Shown here: piece by piece, positions 4,395 through 50,601 of the stretch
Layout of the letters: each line of letters opens with the position of its first letter
Numbering within the stretch: position 1 is the stretch's first letter
NCBI GenBank assembly: GCA_016932935.1
Contig: JAFGBX010000082.1
Location: forward strand, 1 to 56,792
Direction: 5' to 3'
Length of the DNA stretch: 56,792 nt
DNA from: Promethearchaeota archaeon
Lineage (GTDB): Archaea; Asgardarchaeota; Lokiarchaeia; Sigyniarchaeales; Sigyniarchaeaceae
Notes under the pieces: generated by a model
Seen by the model: the letters and a program-made list of their open reading frames with translations, nothing else
What the model was told of the DNA's origin: nothing
Databases searched by the model: none
Made by a program: the position numbers and the translations under genes

Positions 4395-5630
4395 ATGATA
4401 CTGCCAGGGATCGACGCGGTACACGTCGTCGACCGCGTCCACGGCGACCCCCTCGCCGAGCGGCGCCTCCAGCGCTTCGTCGCCGCGTTGAAGCCACGCG
4501 AGGTCATCGACGTCGACGACGACGGGTTGGAGCATCTCGTGCGCGAGATCGGGGGCACGCGCGGCCACGAGCTCCGCACCGGTGCGTACCGCCGCCGGGG
4601 CCCGCCGGCCATCATCTTCAACGCGTTCCGCCACGACGAAAAAGACCTCGCCAAGGCCAGGAAGGCGCACCCGTCCCTCGACACGTCCATGCTCCTCGGC
4701 CAGGGCGCGGTCACGACCCGCGCCAAGATCAACCTCCACGGCCCCGACTGGTGCGCGTGCCAGGCCGGCGTCGAGTTCCATTCCCTCTACGGTTGCCTCC
4801 ACGCGTGCGATTACTGCCACGTCGAAAACTACCTGAACGTCATGCTCGACCTCGAGTGGCTCGCCGGCGTCTTCGAGCGCGCCGTCGCCATGAACCCGGG
4901 CCAGCAGCTCTACAAGTACGACAACCATTCCGACACGATCTGCCTCGAACCCGAGTACGGCGCGTCTGAGCTGTTCGTGAACCTCTTCGCGGGGCTCCCC
5001 GGCAAGTACCTCCTCCTCTACACGAAGAGCGACAACGTCGACCACCTGCTCGGCCTCGACCACGGCGGGCACACGATCGTCAACTGGAGCTTGTCACCCC
5101 GCACCCAGAGCACGCGCGTCGAGAAGGGCACCCCGCCGGTCGCCCGCCGCATCGAGGCCATGGCGAAGTGCCAGGCCGCGGGCTACCGGGTGCGCGCCCG
5201 GTTCTCGCCCATCGTCCCCGTCGCAGGCTGGCGGGAGGATTACGCGGCGATGGCCGAGGAGCTGTACGGCAGCGCCGAGCCCGACGTGGTCACGCTCGAC
5301 GTGGTTGGCTTCATGAGCCCGACCCAGATGAAGGCCTCGCTGGACACGGCGCTGTTCGACGACAAGGCGAGGGCGTTGCTCGACGAGCAGGAACGACTCG
5401 ACAGGCCCAAGTGGGGGAAGCACGTGTTCCCGCACGCCTACCGCAAGGAGCTCTACGAGCACGTGATCGGCGAGATCCGGCGCCACCGGCCCGGCCAGGT
5501 CGTCTCCATCTGCAACGAGACGTTCGACATGTGGGATGACCTGGCGCCGCTGCTCGGCGCCAACGCGGACCCCGAGCGCTTCACGTGCTGCTGCGGGCCG
5601 AACTCGGTGCCGGGCGTGCACTTGCTCTGA
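4395..5630 (+). CDS. Radical SAM protein, spore-photoproduct-lyase (SplB)-like family
   Basis: 411 aa with CxxxCxxC in YGCLHACDYCHVENY, and an SPL-like context (LLYTKSDNVDHLL, SLSP....RVEKGTP....RIEA). High GC3 typical of real genes here. The antisense ORF 4002..5072 is a shadow. Confidence 0.65.
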   Translation: MILPGIDAVHVVDRVHGDPLAERRLQRFVAALKPREVIDVDDDGLEHLVREIGGTRGHELRTGAYRRRGPPAIIFNAFRHDEKDLAKARKAHPSLDTSMLLGQGAVTTRAKINLHGPDWCACQAGVEFHSLYGCLHACDYCHVENYLNVMLDLEWLAGVFERAVAMNPGQQLYKYDNHSDTICLEPEYGASELFVNLFAGLPGKYLLLYTKSDNVDHLLGLDHGGHTIVNWSLSPRTQSTRVEKGTPPVARRIEAMAKCQAAGYRVRARFSPIVPVAGWREDYAAMAEELYGSAEPDVVTLDVVGFMSPTQMKASLDTALFDDKARALLDEQERLDRPKWGKHVFPHAYRKELYEHVIGEIRRHRPGQVVSICNETFDMWDDLAPLLGANADPERFTCCCGPNSVPGVHLL

Positions 5631-42565: not shown

Positions 42566-43708
42566 ATGAACAGCAAGGAACGCGTCCTGGCGGCGTTCGA
42601 CCACGAGGAGCCCGACCGCGTGCCGATCTTCGTCCAATCGATCATGCCGGTGTTCTACTCGCGGATGGAGCAGCTATGGGCCGAGGAGGAGGACATCGAC
42701 GTCATCTTCCTGGGGAAGGACTTCACCTTGTACAAGCGCATGGGCTTCGACATGTCTTGGGGCGGCGCGGGGCTCGGCGCGTCGCCAGCCGTCAACCGCA
42801 TCGACGAGCACCCGCTCCCCGCCATGAAGGAACCGGGCGTGACCATCGACATTACCGGCCGCCTGCACAAGACCACCGTGATGAACGGCCACCCGTACAC
42901 GTGGTACCTCGGCCCGTACCTGGCGACGGAGGAGGCGGTCGACGAGTGGTATGAGAACTACTTTTTCGGCGTGGAATTCGTTCCCCCGTCCGACGACATC
43001 GTCAAGAACTTGAACGACCACATCAAGCAGACCGTCGGCGACGGGCGGTTCGTCCCGACGTGCGGCTTAAGGGGCGTGTTCGAGGGCGTCTTCGAGGGCA
43101 TGACGCCCCAGCTGTTCTCCCGGCTGCTGATCAAGAAGCCCCAGAAGCTCAAGCGGATATACGAGGCCTACGCGGCGCAGTCGATCGAGAACGCAAAGGT
43201 CGTCGCCCGCTTGGACTACGACGTCTACAACCTGGCCGACGACCAGGCATACAAGGGCAGTACGTACATCTCCCCGAAGGCGCACCGCGAGATCATCATC
43301 CCTCTCTACAAGAGAATCGTCGGCGAGATCCACAAGGTGAGCAAGGAGAAGCGGGTCTTCTTCCACTCGGACGGCTTCACCGAGCCGCTGTTCCCAGGCC
43401 TCATCGAGGCGGGCTTCGACGGCGTGGAGAGCCTCGAGCCCGGTGCGGGGATGGACCTCAAGCACCTGAAGGAGGCCTACGGCGGCAAGCTCACGCTCAT
43501 CGGCAACGTCGACTGCTCCCGGCTGCTCCCCTTCGGCACGCCGGCCGACGTGGAGGCTGCGGTCAAGCAGATGATACGGGACGCGGGGCACGGCGGCGGG
43601 TACATCGTGAGCCCTTGCACCGACCTCACCGACTCGTGCAAGTTCGAGAACGGCGTGGCCATGGTCGAGGCCGTGAGGAAATGGGGCCAGTACCCGCTGA
43701 AAGCCTAA
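42566..43708 (+). CDS. Uroporphyrinogen decarboxylase (URO-D) family protein, MtaA/MtbA-like methyltransferase type
   Basis: 380 aa. The N-terminus MNSKERVLAAFDHEEPDRVPIF and the C-terminus HSDG....L.P.LIEAGFDGV..LEP.AGMDL..LKE.YG.KL.LIGN.D fit the URO-D fold family. Confidence 0.65.
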   Translation: MNSKERVLAAFDHEEPDRVPIFVQSIMPVFYSRMEQLWAEEEDIDVIFLGKDFTLYKRMGFDMSWGGAGLGASPAVNRIDEHPLPAMKEPGVTIDITGRLHKTTVMNGHPYTWYLGPYLATEEAVDEWYENYFFGVEFVPPSDDIVKNLNDHIKQTVGDGRFVPTCGLRGVFEGVFEGMTPQLFSRLLIKKPQKLKRIYEAYAAQSIENAKVVARLDYDVYNLADDQAYKGSTYISPKAHREIIIPLYKRIVGEIHKVSKEKRVFFHSDGFTEPLFPGLIEAGFDGVESLEPGAGMDLKHLKEAYGGKLTLIGNVDCSRLLPFGTPADVEAAVKQMIRDAGHGGGYIVSPCTDLTDSCKFENGVAMVEAVRKWGQYPLKA

Positions 43709-43757: not shown

Positions 43758-44867
43758 TCACGTGATGGGATAAACGCCGTGCTTCTTGTTCGTCTCGATC
43801 ATGGCGTGGACGTTCTCTATCCTCGTTGTCGCGAGGATGTTGGCGCCCGGCGCGAGGATGAAACCGCCACCCACCGCCGCGTCCTTGATGCATTGCTTCG
43901 TGATCTCGACCGTGAACTCGACCGACCCCACGCACAGCGCGTCCGACGACGGGACGTTCCCGATGAGGGCGATCTTGTCGCCGTGCTGCTCCTTGAGCGG
44001 CTTCAGCCGCATGCCGGCCTCGTACTCGAGCGGCTCCGCGGCGTCGACCCCGGCACGGCACATTCCGGGGAACGACTCGTTCAGGTTTCCGTCCGTGTGG
44101 ACGAGGAACTTAGCGCCGCGTTCATGCGCGTTGTCGGCGAGCCGCTTGTACACGGGCTCGACGAACCGTTCCCAGTCCGCCGGGCTCATCATGAGCCTGT
44201 CCTTCTGCGCGTGGTCGTCGCATATGAACGCGTATGGTATCCCCGCCTCGAATATCCGCTTGTGTTCCTCGATGGTTACGTCGCACCACGCGTTGATGAG
44301 CCCGTGGACGAGTTCTGGGTGCTTGCGGGTCATGTACGAGAAGCGCCGCATCCCGATGGACGCCCACGTGTCCATGGTCGGTCCACCGGCGGTCGGGATC
44401 GGGACGATGTCCTTCGCGCAGCCGACGTCCCACATATTCTTGATGCCCTTGTAGTAGCCATCGTCAGGCGGGACGAAGTCCCTCACGTAGGGGATCCACG
44501 CCTTGACGAGCTCGGGCGTCTTGAGCGCCCCGTCGTAGTACCACGACTTCGTGCCGTCATCGCTGCGGACGTGGATCACGCCCGTCTTGCCGACGACTTG
44601 ACCTTCGGGCAGCGGGGGCAGCTCGGCGGGCAATTCCCTCGCCGGTGCCGAGGAGCCGTGCAGGTGGATCCACTTCGAATCGAACCCGAGCTGCCGGGCC
44701 AGGATCATGTCCATGGTCATGTCCGGAAACAGTCCCGCCTCGTCTTCGATGCCGACTTGCTCGTCGAACCGCCGGACGAACGGGTCCTCGATGGACTGGG
44801 TGAAAGTGGGGACTCGGTCGGGCTCCTCGTGGCAGAGCGCCTTCCAGATGCGTTCGTGGGCCTTCAT
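43758..44867 (-). CDS. URO-D family protein (second, convergent paralog)
   Basis: 369 aa: MKAHERIWKALCHEEPDRVPTFTQSI..., later HTDGNLNESFPGMCRAGVDAAEPLEYEAGMRLKPLKEQHGDKIALIGNV. Confidence 0.65.
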   Translation of the reverse strand: MKAHERIWKALCHEEPDRVPTFTQSIEDPFVRRFDEQVGIEDEAGLFPDMTMDMILARQLGFDSKWIHLHGSSAPARELPAELPPLPEGQVVGKTGVIHVRSDDGTKSWYYDGALKTPELVKAWIPYVRDFVPPDDGYYKGIKNMWDVGCAKDIVPIPTAGGPTMDTWASIGMRRFSYMTRKHPELVHGLINAWCDVTIEEHKRIFEAGIPYAFICDDHAQKDRLMMSPADWERFVEPVYKRLADNAHERGAKFLVHTDGNLNESFPGMCRAGVDAAEPLEYEAGMRLKPLKEQHGDKIALIGNVPSSDALCVGSVEFTVEITKQCIKDAAVGGGFILAPGANILATTRIENVHAMIETNKKHGVYPIT

Positions 44868-44912
44868 CTGTCGTTCCTTGGCAGCTATGCGGGTTGAAGC
44901 TTTTTAAGGGGC

Positions 44913-44954
44913 CTAGTCAATGTGTAGTTGACTAGTCAAAGGAACATTGACTAG
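44913..44954. promoter_or_regulatory. Operator-like triple inverted repeat (TTGACTAG half-sites)
   Basis: CTAGTCAA-tgtgtag-TTGACTAGTCAA-aggaaca-TTGACTAG. The centre is a perfect 12-bp palindrome at 44928..44939, flanked at 7-nt spacing by matching half-sites. It lies between a TATA-like TTTTTAAG (about 44901) and ATG 44973, in the divergent intergenic region. Confidence 0.55.
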
Positions 44955-44972
44955 CTGGGCATGTGATTCGAG

Positions 44973-45704
44973 ATGAACGAGACCCCCTCTAGAAGTATTA
45001 CACTTTGGATCGCCCTCGCGGGCATCTTCACGGCGCTGACCACGGTCGCCACGGTGGTATTGTCTCCCCCGCTCCCGGCCGGTTTCTTCAACTTCGGCGA
45101 GGCAGTGATATACCTCGCCGCGATGCTGCTGGGCCCCGTCAACTTGCGCGGGACACGTGTCCCCTTGGGTGCGTTGGTCACCGGCTTTGCCGGAAGCATC
45201 GGTGCCATGCTCGGGGACGCCATCCTCGGGTACCCGCAGTACATCCCCGCGACCCTTGTCTTGAAGTTCTTCGAGGGCCTCGTCGCCGGACTTCTGTTTA
45301 AGGGTCTCAAGGCTCGCATGAACGAGGAAACCCTGGCAAGTGGGAGAACCACGGTACGCGTTCTCATGAGCGGCTTCTTGATCGCCGCGGCCGTCATCAT
45401 CATCGGCGTGAATTACGACCCGGGTGCCACGGCCCTCTGGATCACCATCGGATCCTTCTTCATCGTCATCGTCTGTATTTCCATCGTCCGGGGGAAGATC
45501 CCGGTCTATTACATGGTGATGGCGATGCTCGCCGGTGGCATCATCATGGTCGTTGGGTATTTCGTGTACGAGCTCTACGTTCTGAAGGTCGCGACCGCCT
45601 TCATGACCCTGCCGTGGAACACGGTACAGGCGCTGGTGGGCATCATCGTCGCCGTTCCCGTGTACCAGGCCGCGCAAAGGGCGAGAGTCTTGAATGCGCT
45701 GTAG
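44973..45704 (+). CDS. Polytopic membrane protein (possibly an ECF-transporter S-component-like substrate binder)
   Basis: 243 aa with about 6 hydrophobic segments (LWIALAGIFTALTTVATVVL, AVIYLAAMLLGP, LVTGFAGSIGAMLGDAILG, LVLKFFEGLVAGLLF, ...). The family assignment is tentative. The 700-aa antisense ORF 44913..47015 is a shadow. Confidence 0.55.
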   Translation: MNETPSRSITLWIALAGIFTALTTVATVVLSPPLPAGFFNFGEAVIYLAAMLLGPVNLRGTRVPLGALVTGFAGSIGAMLGDAILGYPQYIPATLVLKFFEGLVAGLLFKGLKARMNEETLASGRTTVRVLMSGFLIAAAVIIIGVNYDPGATALWITIGSFFIVIVCISIVRGKIPVYYMVMAMLAGGIIMVVGYFVYELYVLKVATAFMTLPWNTVQALVGIIVAVPVYQAAQRARVLNAL

Positions 45705-45746
45705 AGGATCCAGGACGGGAACCTGAACGACCCCCGCAGCGAGCCG

Positions 45747-47147
45747 GTGCTGAAACCCATGGACACGCTCGAGATGCGTTGCTGGGACGGGCACGTCCTC
45801 CCGGGCGAGAGGATCAACTCGCCGGATCCGCTGTTCAAGTGCCCGGCCTGCGACAAGAACCTCTTCATCCAGGAAACGTCGGGATCCCTGGCACGGGATG
45901 GCGGCGTGAGAGCCAAGCTCGATTTCTGGAACTACTTGAAGCGGGTGCTGCCAGCGGCCTTCTTCGAGGAGCGCGTCAGTATGGGCGAGGGCGGCACGAA
46001 GCTGGTCGATTCCACCGTGAACCAGGGCGATGCCGGGGAGCGGGCCTGCTTCAAGGACGAGTCCCAGAACCCCACACGCTCCTATAGGGATCGCGCCGCT
46101 GCCTTGCTCGTCACCCACGCGAGGATCCTTCACTGCAAGGAGGTGTTCTGCGCCAGCACGGGGAACATGGGGGCGTCCGTTTCCGCTTACGCCGCCCGGG
46201 CCGGCCTCGTCGCAAGGATTTTCAGCGACAGGAGCATCGACATTGGCAAGAAGGCCCAGATCAAGACCTACGGTGGCGTGCTGTTCGACTCCTACCCGTC
46301 GATGAACGACGGCATGGACGACTGCCTCAAGCACCAGATGGCGGAGGGCGGGTACCAGGCCACGGCCGAGTTTAACCCCCTCTCGATGCTGGCCCAGAAG
46401 TCGATCGCGTACGAGATCGTGTCCGATGGGTTCGTACCTGACGAGGTATACATCTCTATAGGTAATGGCGGCACGTTGTTCTCGCTGTGGCAGGGATTCG
46501 ATGACCTCCGCGCGAGCGGGGCAATCCCATCGACGCCGAGGATGATCGGGGCGAGCCTTTCGACCGAGGGCCCGCGGATATCGCCGCTGAAGGAATCGAA
46601 GTACTCGCAGCGGGACTTGATGGAGAACGCGATCAAGGAATCCGGCGGGGATCAGATAACGATAACGGAGGGCGAGATCACCGGCGCGATCTCCACGCTC
46701 GCCCGAGCGGAAGGGCTCTTCGTGGAGCCGGCCACGGCCGCCGCGTATGCCGCTCTGAAGAAGCGCGCGAACCGCGAGTCCGGCCTGAAGCGCGTCGTGA
46801 TCCTCACCGGCACCGGCCTGAAGGCGCCCAGCGTCATCGACGCGCTGATCAGCAAGGCGCCCAACTCGGACCTGTTCGTCCAGACGAAGATGAATTTGCG
46901 GCTGAAGATCCTCGAGCAGTTGCAGCACGCCGGGCCGGCGGGCTTGCACGGGTACAGGATCCACGCGTCCATTCTCGAGGACATCCAGTGCACGAAACAA
47001 GCGGTTTACCACCACCTGAAACAGATGGAGGAGAAGAACTTCGTCGTCGTCATCGCGAGGGACGAGCAGGGCCGCACGATCTACCAGCTCACCGAGAAAG
47101 GGAAAGAGGTGCTCGACCTGCTGAGCAGGCTCGTCGACCTCTTCTAG
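45747..47147 (+). CDS. Threonine-synthase-like fold-type II PLP-family protein with an N-terminal zinc ribbon, a Lys-to-Arg change at the Schiff-base position and a C-terminal wHTH
   Basis: 466 aa. ThrC-like blocks: FKDESQNPTRSYRDRAA (canonical NPTGSFKDRG; the Lys codon position is AGG at 46086..46088), CASTGNMGASVSAYAARAGL, GNGGTLFSLWQGF, FVEPATAAAYAAL. The C-terminus HGYRIHASILEDIQCTKQAVYHHLKQMEEKNFVVVIARDEQGRTIYQLTEKGKEVLDLL looks like an ArsR/MarR-type winged helix. Confidence 0.7.
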   Translation: MLKPMDTLEMRCWDGHVLPGERINSPDPLFKCPACDKNLFIQETSGSLARDGGVRAKLDFWNYLKRVLPAAFFEERVSMGEGGTKLVDSTVNQGDAGERACFKDESQNPTRSYRDRAAALLVTHARILHCKEVFCASTGNMGASVSAYAARAGLVARIFSDRSIDIGKKAQIKTYGGVLFDSYPSMNDGMDDCLKHQMAEGGYQATAEFNPLSMLAQKSIAYEIVSDGFVPDEVYISIGNGGTLFSLWQGFDDLRASGAIPSTPRMIGASLSTEGPRISPLKESKYSQRDLMENAIKESGGDQITITEGEITGAISTLARAEGLFVEPATAAAYAALKKRANRESGLKRVVILTGTGLKAPSVIDALISKAPNSDLFVQTKMNLRLKILEQLQHAGPAGLHGYRIHASILEDIQCTKQAVYHHLKQMEEKNFVVVIARDEQGRTIYQLTEKGKEVLDLLSRLVDLF

Positions 47148-47160
47148 CAGCGGCTCGCCC

Positions 47161-48231
47161 TCAGAACTTCCAGAAGGGCTTCAAGTGCTCCTGCAGCTTC
47201 TTGGCCAGGTTCCCGTGGTACTCCAGGATGCTCTCCCCGGACTCGTGCTCGGCCTCCACGAAGGGCATCTTCTTTCCAGCGAGAACGTTCAAGATGTTCA
47301 CGATGCTCTGCGCGAGGATCTTCACCCGGTAGCCGCCCTCCAGCAGGAGCACCATCTTGCCGCCGCAGCACTTGTCCGCGATGCGCTTGAAGCCCTCGAC
47401 GTAGTGCCCGTACCCTTGCGTCGTGAAGGAGAGGCCCGACAAGGGGTCGGAGTAGTGCGCGTCGCCGCCGAAGCTGCAGAGGATGATGTCGGGCTCGTAC
47501 TGCTCGAAGACTGGCTTGATCACCTGTGAGAAGATCAGCTGGACGACGTCGTCGCCCGCGCCGGGCGCGAGTGGGGCGTTCATGTTGTAGCCCTTCCCCG
47601 GCCCCTCGCCGATCTCCGACGGGAACCCGGTGCCGGGGTACTGCGTCCGTGGATCCTGGTGGCTGCTGAAGAAGAGCACGTCGTTCCGGCCGTAGAACAG
47701 CTCCGACGTGCCGTTCCCGTGGTGCAAGTCGATGTCGAAGATGGCGACCTTCTTCAACCCCTTTTTCTTGAGGAGGTACTCGACCAGGATGGCCATGTTG
47801 TTGAAGATGCAGAAACCAGATGAACGGCTCGCGTTCGCATGGTGCCCCGGTGGCCTGACCAGCGCGAACGCGCTCGAGACCTCGCCGCTCAAGACGGCAT
47901 CGGCCGCGGCCATCGCCCCGCCCGCCGCGAGCAGCGCGACATCGAACGACTTGCCGCAGACCACGGTATCGCCGCCGTCGAGGTACTCGAGCGAGCGTCC
48001 CGTCGCCTGGAGGGACTTCGCGCGGGCGTACTCGATCATGTCCGCGTGGTGGATCATCTTGATCTCCTCGATGGTGGCGGGCCTCGGCGCGATCAACTTG
48101 AAGTCGGGGGATTCGAGCATATTCTCGCTCTTGATGAGATCCATGGTCGCGACGAGGCGCTCCGGCGATTCCACGTGGGAGCCGGTTTGATGCTGCAGAT
48201 ACATCGGATCGTATACTATGCCGACAGCCAT
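47161..48231 (-). CDS. Class I/II histone deacetylase family protein (AcuC/HDAC-like deacetylase)
   Basis: Trimmed to ATG 48231 (MAVGIVYDPMYLQHQTGSHVESPERL). Motifs: RPPGHHA, FDIDLHHGNGT, GGDAHYSDPL, LEGGY. Confidence 0.85.
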   Translation of the reverse strand: MAVGIVYDPMYLQHQTGSHVESPERLVATMDLIKSENMLESPDFKLIAPRPATIEEIKMIHHADMIEYARAKSLQATGRSLEYLDGGDTVVCGKSFDVALLAAGGAMAAADAVLSGEVSSAFALVRPPGHHANASRSSGFCIFNNMAILVEYLLKKKGLKKVAIFDIDLHHGNGTSELFYGRNDVLFFSSHQDPRTQYPGTGFPSEIGEGPGKGYNMNAPLAPGAGDDVVQLIFSQVIKPVFEQYEPDIILCSFGGDAHYSDPLSGLSFTTQGYGHYVEGFKRIADKCCGGKMVLLLEGGYRVKILAQSIVNILNVLAGKKMPFVEAEHESGESILEYHGNLAKKLQEHLKPFWKF

Positions 48232-48365
48232 GTGCTCTCTTTCGTGGAGGGAGTTAATATAATTGACCTCGAAAAACCTCGCACTGGGGCAATCTGCCCC
48301 GCCGGGAGCGCCAGCATCTCGTTGTCGCGGAGACAAATCGGGAATGTTGAAAAACCAGAAGCTGC

Positions 48366-48373
48366 TATTTAAA
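48366..48373 (+). promoter_or_regulatory. TATA box for nop56/58-fibrillarin
   Basis: TATTTAAA lies 18-27 nt upstream of the candidate starts TTG 48391 and GTG 48400. Confidence 0.5.
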
Positions 48374-48390
48374 CCATCACGATCGGATGG

Positions 48391-49887
48391 TTGGCCAACG
48401 TGAGTCACTCACTCATTTGCACCGCGTGCTGCATCGCCGTGACGGACGGGCAAGGGAACGTCGTCGTCCGCCACGAGTTACCGAGAGATGCCGAAAAGGT
48501 CGCGCGCGTGATGCTCGCCTTGAAAACTGCGACACCCAGCACTGACCTCGAGGAGATCGTCGCCAAGATCACGGACTACATGAAAGGTGCACCTGGCAGG
48601 GACATCCTCGAGGCCGAGGACGAGTACCTCTACCAGCTGCTCGACGGGAAAGTTCCGGGGCGCCTCTTCGCGGTGAAGTCGACCGGGGCAGGCGCTGCCT
48701 ACCGGCAGGACGTCGTTTCGTTCCTCGCGAAGCTTGGGAGCACCTGGAACGCCGGGGAATTCTACGCGTTCAACCGCGCGGTCAACGTGGAACTCACGAA
48801 GCTACAGATCAAGTCTGTCTCGGAGCAAAACGACCGTCTCATCATGCAGGCCGTGAACTCGATCGACGACATCAACAAGAGCACGAACATCTTCTCCGAG
48901 CGCATCCGCGAGTGGTACGGCTATCACTTCCCCGAGTTGACCGACCAGCTCGTCGCCGACCACGAGTTTTTCCTCGAGATCATCACCAGCATCGGCACCC
49001 GGGGCGAGTTCGCGCCCGACCGGATCAAGGCCCTCCGGCCCGTCCAGGACAGGACCGTCGAGGTCATGGTCAAGCGGGCCAGTGAATCCATGGGTGGCGA
49101 CTTCTCTCCCTTCGACATCAAGACCGTGCAAGCGTTCGCCAGCAGCGTGCTCGACCTGTACAAGGCACGGGTAAAGATCGAGAATTATGTCGAGTCCTTG
49201 ATGGAGCAGACGTGCCCGAACTTGTCGGTCATCGTCGGTTCTCTGCTCGGTGCACGGCTCATATGCCTTGCAGGTGGCCTCGAAGCCCTTGCCAAGAAAC
49301 CCAGCTCCACGATCCAGGTTCTCGGCGCGGAAAAGGCGCTGTTCCGGGCGATCAAGACCAAGGGTGAGCCGCCCAAGCATGGCATTCTTTTCCAAGCGAA
49401 AGAGGTTCGATCCGCCCCGTACTGGCAGCGCGGGAAGGTCGCGCGCCTGCTCGCGGGCAAGATCTCGATCGCGGCCAGGGTCGACCAGGTCAGCAAGCGG
49501 TACATCGCCGACGAGCTGCTCGCGGACATCCGCAGCAAGCTCGCGGAGATACAGCGGAAGTACCCGGACAAGCCGCCACAAGTGAAGGAACGATCATCTC
49601 CTTCCCGGCCAGAGGAATGGAAGAGAAAAACTAGGCCTGGCGGGTTGCAGCGCGACCGGGGGCCTGGAGGCTTCAAGTCTCGGCAAGGGGGTACCGGCTC
49701 GCGGCCTCCCAAACGAGGCGGAACCCGAGCCGATCACACGTGGCCTTCCGGGTCGAAGGGCGGTGAAAGGCCCCGGCCGTACAAGTCGGCGGGTTCCGGG
49801 AACAAGTCGTTCAAGCAAGGAGGCGGCGGGGCGAATGCCGCCAGGAAGTATCCCTCCAAGGGGAAGCCGAGAACGGGCAGGGAGTGA
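48391..49887 (+). CDS. nop5: Nop56/58 (Nop5) C/D box sRNP core protein with a long Gly/Arg/Lys-rich C-terminal tail
   Basis: NOSIC/Nop blocks: AVNSIDDINKSTNIFSERIREWYGYHFPEL, LLGARLICLAGGLEALAKKPSSTIQVLGAEKALFRA, PKHGILFQ, GKVARLLAGKISIAARVD. The start is TTG in the track; GTG 48400 is an alternative. Confidence 0.9.
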   Translation: MANVSHSLICTACCIAVTDGQGNVVVRHELPRDAEKVARVMLALKTATPSTDLEEIVAKITDYMKGAPGRDILEAEDEYLYQLLDGKVPGRLFAVKSTGAGAAYRQDVVSFLAKLGSTWNAGEFYAFNRAVNVELTKLQIKSVSEQNDRLIMQAVNSIDDINKSTNIFSERIREWYGYHFPELTDQLVADHEFFLEIITSIGTRGEFAPDRIKALRPVQDRTVEVMVKRASESMGGDFSPFDIKTVQAFASSVLDLYKARVKIENYVESLMEQTCPNLSVIVGSLLGARLICLAGGLEALAKKPSSTIQVLGAEKALFRAIKTKGEPPKHGILFQAKEVRSAPYWQRGKVARLLAGKISIAARVDQVSKRYIADELLADIRSKLAEIQRKYPDKPPQVKERSSPSRPEEWKRKTRPGGLQRDRGPGGFKSRQGGTGSRPPKRGGTRADHTWPSGSKGGERPRPYKSAGSGNKSFKQGGGGANAARKYPSKGKPRTGRE

Positions 49888-49917
49888 TGTCAGACGTCGA
49901 GAAACGACTCGTATTCC

Positions 49918-50601
49918 GTGAAAGCGCATAACAAGTTCGAAGGCATCTTCGCGATCACCGTGGATGGCAACGAGATCCTCGGGACGAGGAACATGACCCC
50001 CGGCACGAGCGTGTACGGCGAGCGCCTCTTCAAGGGAAGCGGCCAGGATGAGTACCGGGAGTGGAACCCGAACCGGAGCAAGCTGTGCGCGTACCTCCGC
50101 AAGAACGGCAAGGAGTACTACTTAAAGGAGGGCGCTGTCGTCCTGTACCTCGGCGCGGCCAGCGGCACCACGGTCTCCCACCTGTCCGACATCGTCGGAA
50201 CCCGGGGCCGGATCTACGCGGTCGAGTTCTCCGCCCGCAGCTTGCGGGAGCTCGTCCAGCGGCTGTCGAGCCGGGAGAACGTGATCCCGGTCTTCGCCGA
50301 CGCGACGAAGCCGGCCCAGTACCGCTCCTTGATCCCGGAGCAGGTCGACATCATCTACCAGGACGTGGCGCAACCCGAGCAGGCCAAGTTGCTTATCGAC
50401 AACGCACAGACGTTCCTCAAGCCAGGGGGAGGCTTCTACATCGCGATCAAGTCCCGCTCGATCGACGTCACGGTCGAGCCGGAGATCATCTTCCAGAAGG
50501 AGAGGGCGATCCTGGCGAAGGCCGGTTACGACGTCACGGACATGCGCGACATCGCCCCGTTCAGCGACGATCATGTCGTGATCGCTGGCAAGACGGGTTA
50601 G
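49918..50601 (+). CDS. flpA: Fibrillarin (rRNA/tRNA 2'-O-methyltransferase)
   Basis: 227 aa: YREWNPNRSKL, VLYLGAASGTTVSHLSDIVG..G.IYAVEFS.R..REL, NVIPVFADA..P..Y, VDIIYQDVAQP.QA. Confidence 0.92.
   Translation: MKAHNKFEGIFAITVDGNEILGTRNMTPGTSVYGERLFKGSGQDEYREWNPNRSKLCAYLRKNGKEYYLKEGAVVLYLGAASGTTVSHLSDIVGTRGRIYAVEFSARSLRELVQRLSSRENVIPVFADATKPAQYRSLIPEQVDIIYQDVAQPEQAKLLIDNAQTFLKPGGGFYIAIKSRSIDVTVEPEIIFQKERAILAKAGYDVTDMRDIAPFSDDHVVIAGKTG

Follow-up and report, generated by a model that had tools for sequence, protein, structure and literature searches.

Here we describe a gene in a 56,792-nucleotide stretch of DNA from a Promethearchaeota archaeon (contig JAFGBX010000082.1 of GenBank assembly GCA_016932935.1; the whole stretch is referred to below as the window) whose product joins a threonine synthase (ThrC)-like domain, in which arginine takes the place of the lysine that forms the Schiff base with pyridoxal 5'-phosphate (PLP), to a C-terminal PadR-type winged helix-turn-helix (wHTH). 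With moderate confidence, we propose a model in which this protein is a ligand-sensing one-component repressor, built from a ThrC-fold pseudoenzyme and a PadR wHTH, that autoregulates an importer operon, vitamin B6 being the likeliest ligand. The model builds on the arginine at the lysine position and its conservation, the ThrC fold, the homology of the C-terminal domain to PadR, an association between wHTH fusion and lysine loss across the family, the pairing of the gene with an importer gene, and the conservation of an operator-like sequence in the promoter of that pair.

A ThrC-like domain with arginine at the Schiff-base lysine position

The reading frame at 45747..47147 (+) is open over 466 codons counted from GTG; the likelier start is the ATG at 45759, because orthologs begin there and the database protein for the window has 462 amino acids. 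Arg114 denotes codon 114 of the 466-codon frame starting at GTG 45747. The gene and the features of its enzyme-derived part are as follows.

45759..47147, + strand: gene for the predicted ThrC-fold pseudoenzyme/PadR regulator, 462 amino acids from ATG; the open frame permits GTG 45747
45975..46805, + strand: PALP domain (fold-type II, ThrC-like), residues 77-353; PF00291, E 4.7e-47; Foldseek top matches 2d1f, 1v7c and 2zsj
46086..46088, + strand: Arg114 codon AGG, where ThrC has the PLP Schiff-base lysine, from the reading frame and alignments to solved ThrC
45777..45851, + strand: N-terminal zinc-ribbon-like motif C11-x3-H15 ... C32-x2-C35, from ortholog alignments

The initial annotation, made from the letters alone, had reported the motif NPTRSYRDRA with AGG at 46086..46088 in the lysine position, and both the peptide and the codon read exactly so. 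Its registration against characterised enzymes holds as well: in HMMER alignments to the ThrC structures of Mycobacterium tuberculosis (2d1f), Aquifex (2zsj) and Thermus (1uim), with E-values from 3e-34 to 4e-31, the lysine of NPTGSFKDRG pairs exactly with Arg114, and no lysine stands at the catalytic position. The arginine is conserved, being fixed in 20/20 orthologs that share 48-83% identity; the nearest database proteins come from Sigynarchaeota and Lokiarchaeia. In Foldseek, an AlphaFold2 model from 19 orthologs (predicted local distance difference test score 83.1) matches ThrC structures best (E ~1e-20), and the fold-type II (tryptophan-synthase beta-like) fold is present, with 2d1f and 1v7c matched at Foldseek TM-scores, normalised to target length, of at most 0.79. 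At the N-terminus, C32 and C35 are nearly invariant in family alignments, archaeal ThrC relatives have a four-cysteine version of the motif, and the zinc-ribbon-like segment presumably binds a metal.

The pocket is kept in one half and altered in the other. Invariant in the clade are the Gly-rich loop GNGGT (GNAGN in ThrC), N140 of S-x-G-N, T354 of TGTGLK, and EPA, which we take to be the PLP-holding motifs of fold-type II enzymes. T88, N154, S155 and R160 of Thermus ThrC, presumably the ligands of the O-phosphohomoserine phosphate, align with M141, A207, E208 and S213 here, leaving the phosphate-site residues unmatched. The replacements are themselves conserved in the clade (M/L141, A207, E208, S/T213), and residues 141 and 114 co-vary, lysine occurring with Gln or His and arginine with Met or Leu. 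The initial claim that the other ThrC blocks are intact is thus borne out for the PLP-holding motifs and fails for the substrate-phosphate site, all residues of which are replaced. From these alignments the pocket looks remodelled under selection, not decaying. In every fold-type II enzyme characterised to date, the Schiff-base lysine acts as general base and in transaldimination. With lysine changed to arginine and the substrate-phosphate site dismantled, the best reading is that the ThrC-fold domain can no longer carry out PLP catalysis.

Lysine loss goes with the fused winged helix

To place the protein in its family, 1.84 billion representative proteins were searched with a profile, and the best 150 representatives of 50%-identity clusters were retained, 145 of which were long enough to classify. 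Among these best 145 classifiable representatives, the lysine is absent in 86/89 wHTH-fused proteins and kept in 56/56 unfused ones. Its replacements in the fused proteins are Arg (27), Ile (18), Leu (18), Val (6), Met (5), Phe (3) and Thr (3), with Ala, His, Asn, Ser and Tyr occurring once each. Such a spread of residues fits no single chemistry; it does fit a non-catalytic, ligand-binding role. The initial annotation had suggested that a transcription factor might use a non-catalytic fold-type II PLP domain to sense its ligand; this suggestion is strengthened by the association between fusion and lysine loss (86/89 versus 0/56) and further by the PadR-type domain and by a conserved dyad operator in the promoter of the protein's own operon, both described below, as well as by the reported absence from Archaea of the fold-type I MocR regulators (PMC5320631). 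Full-length relatives occur in 40 of the 400 Asgard genomes searched. Several fused Asgard sub-clades have arginine at the lysine position, and one large sub-clade keeps the lysine (NPTNSFKDR, 18 loci); a quick tree of the lysine and arginine forms did not separate one from several origins of the arginine.

Databases register these proteins as enzymes. Against the ThrC model TIGR00260 (cut-off 167.1 bits), the best stretch scores 64.1 bits in the genome search and the whole protein 90.3 bits with hmmscan, both below the cut-off. A canonical thrC lies on another contig of the same genome (C417) and scores 244 bits on TIGR00260; the gene described here is therefore not the housekeeping threonine synthase. 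The NCBIfam model NF004170 (PRK05638), an equivalog of 442 positions named "threonine synthase", spans the ThrC-like domain together with the wHTH. The window protein matches its positions 42-441 with 191.9 bits, below the 421-bit cut-off, and an arginine-form, lysine-less relative with a C-terminal helix-turn-helix (P0025) passes it (514.7 bits versus 421). Because P0025 scores above the cut-off, NF004170 can be said to catalogue the ThrC-like/wHTH architecture, under a functional name that is probably wrong for the lysine-less members. "Threonine synthase" is also the source name of family proteins in Bathyarchaeia, Nitrososphaerales, Helarchaeota and Lokiarchaeota. Within the literature searched, we found no paper on the ThrC-fold/PadR architecture.

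The C-terminal domain is of the PadR type

46869..47144, + strand: PadR-type winged helix-turn-helix plus C-terminal helix, residues 375-466, from Pfam, the structural model and profile searches

About 70 residues of an ArsR/MarR-like wHTH had been described at the C-terminus. A C-terminal wHTH is indeed present; its type is PadR, and its length is about 90 residues. Pfam PadR (PF03551) matches residues 396-456 (E 2e-6, 28.0 bits against a cut-off of 27), and a profile of the last 95 residues from 14 members finds the solved PadR regulators 5dym (E 1.8e-9), 3l7w (1e-6) and 6abq (7e-6), and also 3elk. The layout of small PadR proteins, with three helices, a beta wing and a C-terminal helix, is seen in the AlphaFold2 model, so that the Pfam match, the profile match to 5dym and the model agree on a helix-turn-helix fold. 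Two motifs, GY and Y-x-H-L, the latter located in the recognition helix, are invariant in the C-terminal alignment; the window protein reads Y-H-H-L. By this homology, the domain would be expected to bind DNA.

The gene is paired with a candidate importer gene

44973..45704, + strand: energy-coupling factor (ECF) S-component-like membrane protein of 243 amino acids, PF07155/COG4720, HmpT/PdxU2-like, from Pfam and profile searches

Immediately upstream, on the same strand and separated from the regulator gene by a 54-bp gap without TATA-like sequence, lies a gene for a PF07155 protein (E 4.9e-20, 72.7 bits against a cut-off of 26.7). A profile of seven importer orthologs has one clear solved relative, HmpT/PdxU2 (4HZU chain S, E 4.9e-18). 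Of the HmpT pocket residues E41, H84, Q87, Y120, N140 and Q143 (PMC4860826), E41, Y120, N140 and Q143 are matched (4/6), and invariant K98/E101 stand in place of H84/Q87. The protein has 243 residues, HmpT 166; a stretch of about 67 residues inserted between the HmpT-aligned parts probably forms two extra membrane helices.

The two genes stay together through extensive changes in gene order. An importer homolog lies within 1.5 kb of the ThrC-like gene in 26/30 Asgard loci, be it upstream, downstream or convergent. In orthologous loci both genes always occur together, with the importer first (once with a 4-bp overlap), with the regulator first, or with the regulator followed by two importers. 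In the lysine-bearing clade the PF07155 gene is usually convergent with the ThrC-like gene, and in three of four distant loci with the Ile, Tyr or Ser form it is adjacent or two genes away. A pairing that survives so much rearrangement argues for a functional link, and we consider it likely that the ThrC-fold/PadR protein regulates the adjacent importer. At one of the distant loci, that of a Tyr form (L065, 5327-8058, - strand), a PF07155 gene is followed by a gene for an ATP-binding cassette (ABC) ATPase and a 230-codon gene without a known family, forming one operon that is convergent with the ThrC-like gene; this gene set may be a complete dedicated ECF-type transporter.

A conserved candidate operator lies at the importer promoter

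44901..44907, + strand: TATA-like box TTTTTAA, read in the sequence; putative promoter element of the importer/regulator operon
44914..44953, no strand assigned: candidate operator TAGTCAA-N7-TTGACTAGTCAA-N7-TTGACTA with four half-sites, from the sequence and ortholog comparison

The candidate operator consists of two overlapping perfect 21-bp inverted repeats that have in common a 12-bp palindrome at 44928..44939, and it lies 7 bp downstream of the TATA-like box and 20 bp upstream of the importer ATG. Because the usual archaeal spacing from TATA box to start is about 25 bp, the central palindrome would fall approximately at the transcription start. An A/T-rich box occupies the same relative place in orthologous loci. 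The four-half-site layout recurs, again placed between TATA box and importer start, in L015, L001, L003, L055 and L016, and partly in L007; the proteins at these operator-sharing loci are 81%, 62%, 51%, 50% and 49% identical, that of the partial one 48%, and the intergenic flanks cannot be aligned. In all, 6-7 loci keep both the placement and the layout. At some orthologous loci, several copies of the half-site are shifted to TTGCCTA.

Other clades mark the importer promoter with a different dyad, AAGTT-N2-5-AACTT, usually present twice: it has 20 matches in 2,583 bp, where the rest of the loci would predict 0.28, a ratio that has to be discounted because the pattern was derived from the loci in which it was counted and related genomes are non-independent samples. 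The PadR domain of the ThrC-like protein is the only DNA-binding domain conserved beside the importer promoters.

Neither the 12-mer nor the 21-bp repeats have another perfect copy in the 5.1-Mb assembly, and with up to two mismatches the 21-bp repeat has four matches elsewhere in the genome versus three for a reversed-pattern control, which is no excess. One near-palindrome, GTGACTAGTCAA, lies between genes downstream of a TATA-like run on contig C211 (4021-4032; locus L010, 1501-1512), and we set it aside as probably due to chance because it has no flanking half-sites and the neighbouring reading frames belong to no Pfam family. In a scan of 44600..47400 with Rfam, neither a thiamine pyrophosphate (TPP) riboswitch nor any other element was found, the only hit being a sub-threshold chance match to a snoRNA. 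A sigma-70-type promoter scan gave 0 matches, with a model that is not relevant to an archaeon. The locus sequence was found in a single sequencing run, of DNA and maybe from the source sample, and almost none of its sequence words occur in two metatranscriptome runs of the same study.

The residue that follows the invariant tyrosine of the recognition helix is His at loci with TTGACTA half-sites; loci in which several half-sites are TTGCCTA have Gln, Met or Leu there. This pattern could be a co-variation of protein and operator; it comes from seven related loci and is not clean.

A model for ligand-dependent repression

In our model, the ThrC-fold domain, dead as an enzyme, would be the ligand-binding sensor and the C-terminal PadR winged helix the DNA-binding part. 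The ligand-loaded protein would sit on the four-half-site operator over the predicted transcription start and would repress, rather than activate, the importer-regulator operon, with ligand occupancy of the sensor pocket setting the affinity for DNA; when the ligand is scarce, the protein would come off the DNA and uptake would go up. The regulator probably assembles as a dimer or as a dimer of dimers; since both ThrC and PadR are dimeric and the operator has four half-sites, the second arrangement is probable. We suggest that the ligand would be a form of B6, either PLP or another vitamer, held non-covalently: in a pocket with no lysine, PLP would bind reversibly, as a sensor of the free pool should allow. 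Importer and regulator would then make up a feedback-controlled B6-uptake module, an archaeal counterpart of the bacterial PdxR-pdxU system.

The proposal that the ligand is a vitamin B6 vitamer, our best single guess and a tentative one, draws mainly on the importer. HmpT/PdxU2 binds pyridoxamine (PMC4860826), and the PF07155/COG4720 family contains PdxU and PdxU2/HmpT, two of the three prokaryotic B6/PLP transporters described as characterised, although of these two the substrate has been verified for PdxU2/HmpT only (PMC9997740). In one Asgard genome with an arginine-form regulator (G006, locus L072 on contig C242), a PF07155 gene (1350-2129, - strand) lies directly upstream of pdxS (PF01680; 374-1288, - strand), and two AAGTT-N-AACTT dyads precede the pair, as at module promoters; the regulator itself is on a different contig. 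PdxS and PdxJ were not found in the window's genome, which is 82% complete, and PdxS is missing from 350/400 Asgard genomes searched.

Several observations weigh against the model or against parts of it, besides the circularity in the AAGTT count given above. The PF07155/COG4720 family is broad and its members take several substrates, and the window's importer departs from HmpT at two of six pocket residues (K98, E101). No EcfT (PF02361) match was found in the 82%-complete genome, and the S-component-like protein may therefore work without an ECF module. Presence of the module and absence of PdxS are uncorrelated over the 400 Asgard genomes, PdxS being found in 5/40 genomes with the module and 45/360 without (12.5% in both). 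Among five genomes with both module and PdxS (G113 left out), only G006 has the importer beside pdxS with dyads, and the pdxS promoters of G117, G114 and G115 have no clear shared dyad. On the side of the sensor, the lysine kept in the 18-locus fused sub-clade means that its loss is not required for the pairing with the importer, and Leu or Ile at the lysine position in many members says little about PLP binding.

Going beyond the single operon, we speculate, with less assurance than we attach to the B6 assignment itself, that Archaea independently built a widespread family of B6 sensors in which a dead ThrC domain joined to PadR binds PLP reversibly and switches a B6 importer and, in some lineages, pdxS.

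Alternative explanations

The alternative that survives best keeps the regulator and changes its ligand, which could be an amino acid caught by non-covalently bound PLP as an external aldimine, in a GabR-like manner, or an unrelated micronutrient such as hydroxymethylpyrimidine. The Foldseek matches include 3vsc and 3x44, Lys-to-Ala mutants of fold-type II enzymes that still hold PLP-substrate aldimines, for which reason a PLP-amino-acid adduct stays a rival ligand, and the carboxylate-binding S-x-G-N loop is kept; against an amino acid, no gene of amino-acid metabolism is conserved beside the module. For a ligand other than B6, the two S-component pocket residues that differ from HmpT can be cited, and for hydroxymethylpyrimidine in particular the fact that HmpT was first assigned to this thiamine precursor (PMC4860826). 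An AIRS-family gene lies nearby in two distant loci and would suit a thiamine-type compound, ThiL (thiamine-monophosphate kinase) being a mere candidate for its identity. On the other hand, the TPP riboswitch sought in 44600..47400 is absent, and the link of the S-component to pdxS in G006 points to B6. On balance we regard these other ligands, taken together, as unlikely.

A second alternative is that the protein is a bifunctional trigger enzyme comparable to BirA, with Arg114 and non-covalent PLP performing unusual chemistry on the imported compound while the wHTH autoregulates the operon. The strong conservation of the pocket, including NPT-x-S-Y-R-DR, would agree with this, the related lysine-keeping fused sub-clade could be catalytic, and enzyme-repressor fusions are generally known. 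We consider it improbable, given that no shared chemistry fits R, I, L, V, M, F, T, S, Y, N, H or A at the lysine position, that the Schiff-base lysine serves as base and transaldimination residue in every characterised enzyme of fold type II, and that the ThrC substrate-phosphate site is gone.

Third, the winged helix might not touch DNA at all and might instead mediate protein contacts, for example docking to the S-component so that the ThrC-fold domain acts as a substrate trap or gate, with another factor reading the dyads. Domains of the wHTH type are sometimes protein-interaction modules, as is generally known, and an S-component for which no EcfT was found may need another partner. This arrangement is very improbable, however, as the PadR DNA-contact motifs G-Y and Y-x-H-L are invariant, every clade examined has dyads at its importer promoter, and the pair has no second regulator gene as a conserved neighbour.

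Finally, although the loss of a catalytic residue is what would be expected of a dying enzyme gene, the idea that this gene is a decaying pseudogene, or else a real threonine synthase distorted by an annotation artefact, is effectively ruled out by the full-length open frame, the arginine and many invariant residues shared by 20 orthologs at 48-83% identity, the conserved synteny and the canonical thrC elsewhere in the genome.

Relation to known systems

By function, the closest known system to our proposed repressor is PdxR and the MocR subfamily to which it belongs (PdxR, GabR, TauR, PtsJ); in its ancestry, the protein is a paralog of ThrC, and it does not pass the tests that define ThrC. 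The MocR proteins likewise are one-component regulators that combine a sensor with the fold of a PLP enzyme and a winged helix acting on repeated boxes, and PdxR is a PLP-sensing bacterial regulator with regulons that include pdxST, pdxK and the PF07155 importer gene pdxU (PMC5320631, PMC11619246). In MocR proteins, however, the wHTH is N-terminal and of the GntR type and the sensor is a fold-type I aminotransferase domain that keeps its lysine, whereas here the wHTH is C-terminal and of the PadR type and the fold-type II sensor has lost the lysine; the two are convergent, not homologous. The initial annotation was right to call the use of a fold-type II domain unusual beside MocR, which is of fold type I and has been reported to be absent from Archaea (PMC5320631).

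With ThrC itself (TIGR00260; 2d1f, 1uim/1v7c, 2zsj, 6cgq), the protein has in common the fold, about 30% identity over about 300 residues, the motifs NPT-x-S-aromatic-x-DR, S-x-G-N, the Gly-rich loop and TG-x-GLK, and the N-terminal zinc-ribbon-like segment of archaeal ThrC; it differs in the lysine-to-arginine change, the replaced phosphate-ligand positions, the TIGR00260 score under the cut-off and the extra DNA-binding domain. Its C-terminus resembles small PadR regulators (5dym, 3l7w, 6abq; LmrR) in the wHTH with one C-terminal helix, the G-Y motif and the recognition-helix tyrosine. Those regulators bind inverted repeats as dimers, and the dyad operator in the promoter would be the corresponding site here, with DNA binding by the window's protein predicted from homology. 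Classical PadR proteins are stand-alone, measure about 110-180 residues and bind the ligand at the dimer interface, whereas here the domain is appended to a 370-residue enzyme-derived sensor. The importer, finally, belongs to the same family (PF07155) as HmpT/PdxU2 (4HZU chain S) and differs from it by the roughly 67 extra residues, by K98/E101 and in that no EcfT was found. The ThrC-fold/PadR protein belongs with the enzyme-derived one-component regulators, and databases catalogue its architecture only as an enzyme.

To our knowledge, Archaea have no known regulator that controls the uptake or synthesis of vitamin B6. If our model of a B6-responsive repressor is correct, the system would rank as the first B6 regulon of Archaea and the protein as the first transcription factor with a fold-type II PLP domain, and the series within the family from lysine through arginine to a fully hydrophobic pocket would show a route from enzyme to sensor. 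Many database entries named "threonine synthase" would then need re-annotation, as the current name would inflate predicted threonine biosynthesis in reconstructions of Asgard, Bathyarchaeia and other uncultured archaea. The module would also provide a candidate B6 importer in a group in which 350 of 400 genomes show no PdxS, with a bearing on the vitamin dependencies of organisms that are hard to culture.

Paralogs and neighbouring genes

The same genome contains a second ThrC-like paralog at 4434-5591 (- strand) on contig C396 (locus L045), with the motif NPTGSYIDRQ and thus Ile at the Schiff-base position. Its open frame of 443 amino acids has no winged helix, which makes it a lysine-less ThrC-fold protein of a different sub-group; its sister on contig C96 keeps the lysine.

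On the downstream side, 47161..50601 belongs to a conserved Asgard block that also stands beside the module in loci L001, L003, L007 and L055 and encodes a histone-deacetylase-like protein (convergent), Nop56/58, fibrillarin, RNase HII and a PDDEXK_19/HTH_3 protein. Upstream lie two paralogs of URO-D/MtaA-CmuA-like methyltransferases at 42566..43708 (+) and 43758..44867 (-). One of them is transcribed divergently from the importer gene, with which it may have the single TATA-like box in common; in several orthologous loci, too, genes of the URO-D-like type are found upstream of the module.

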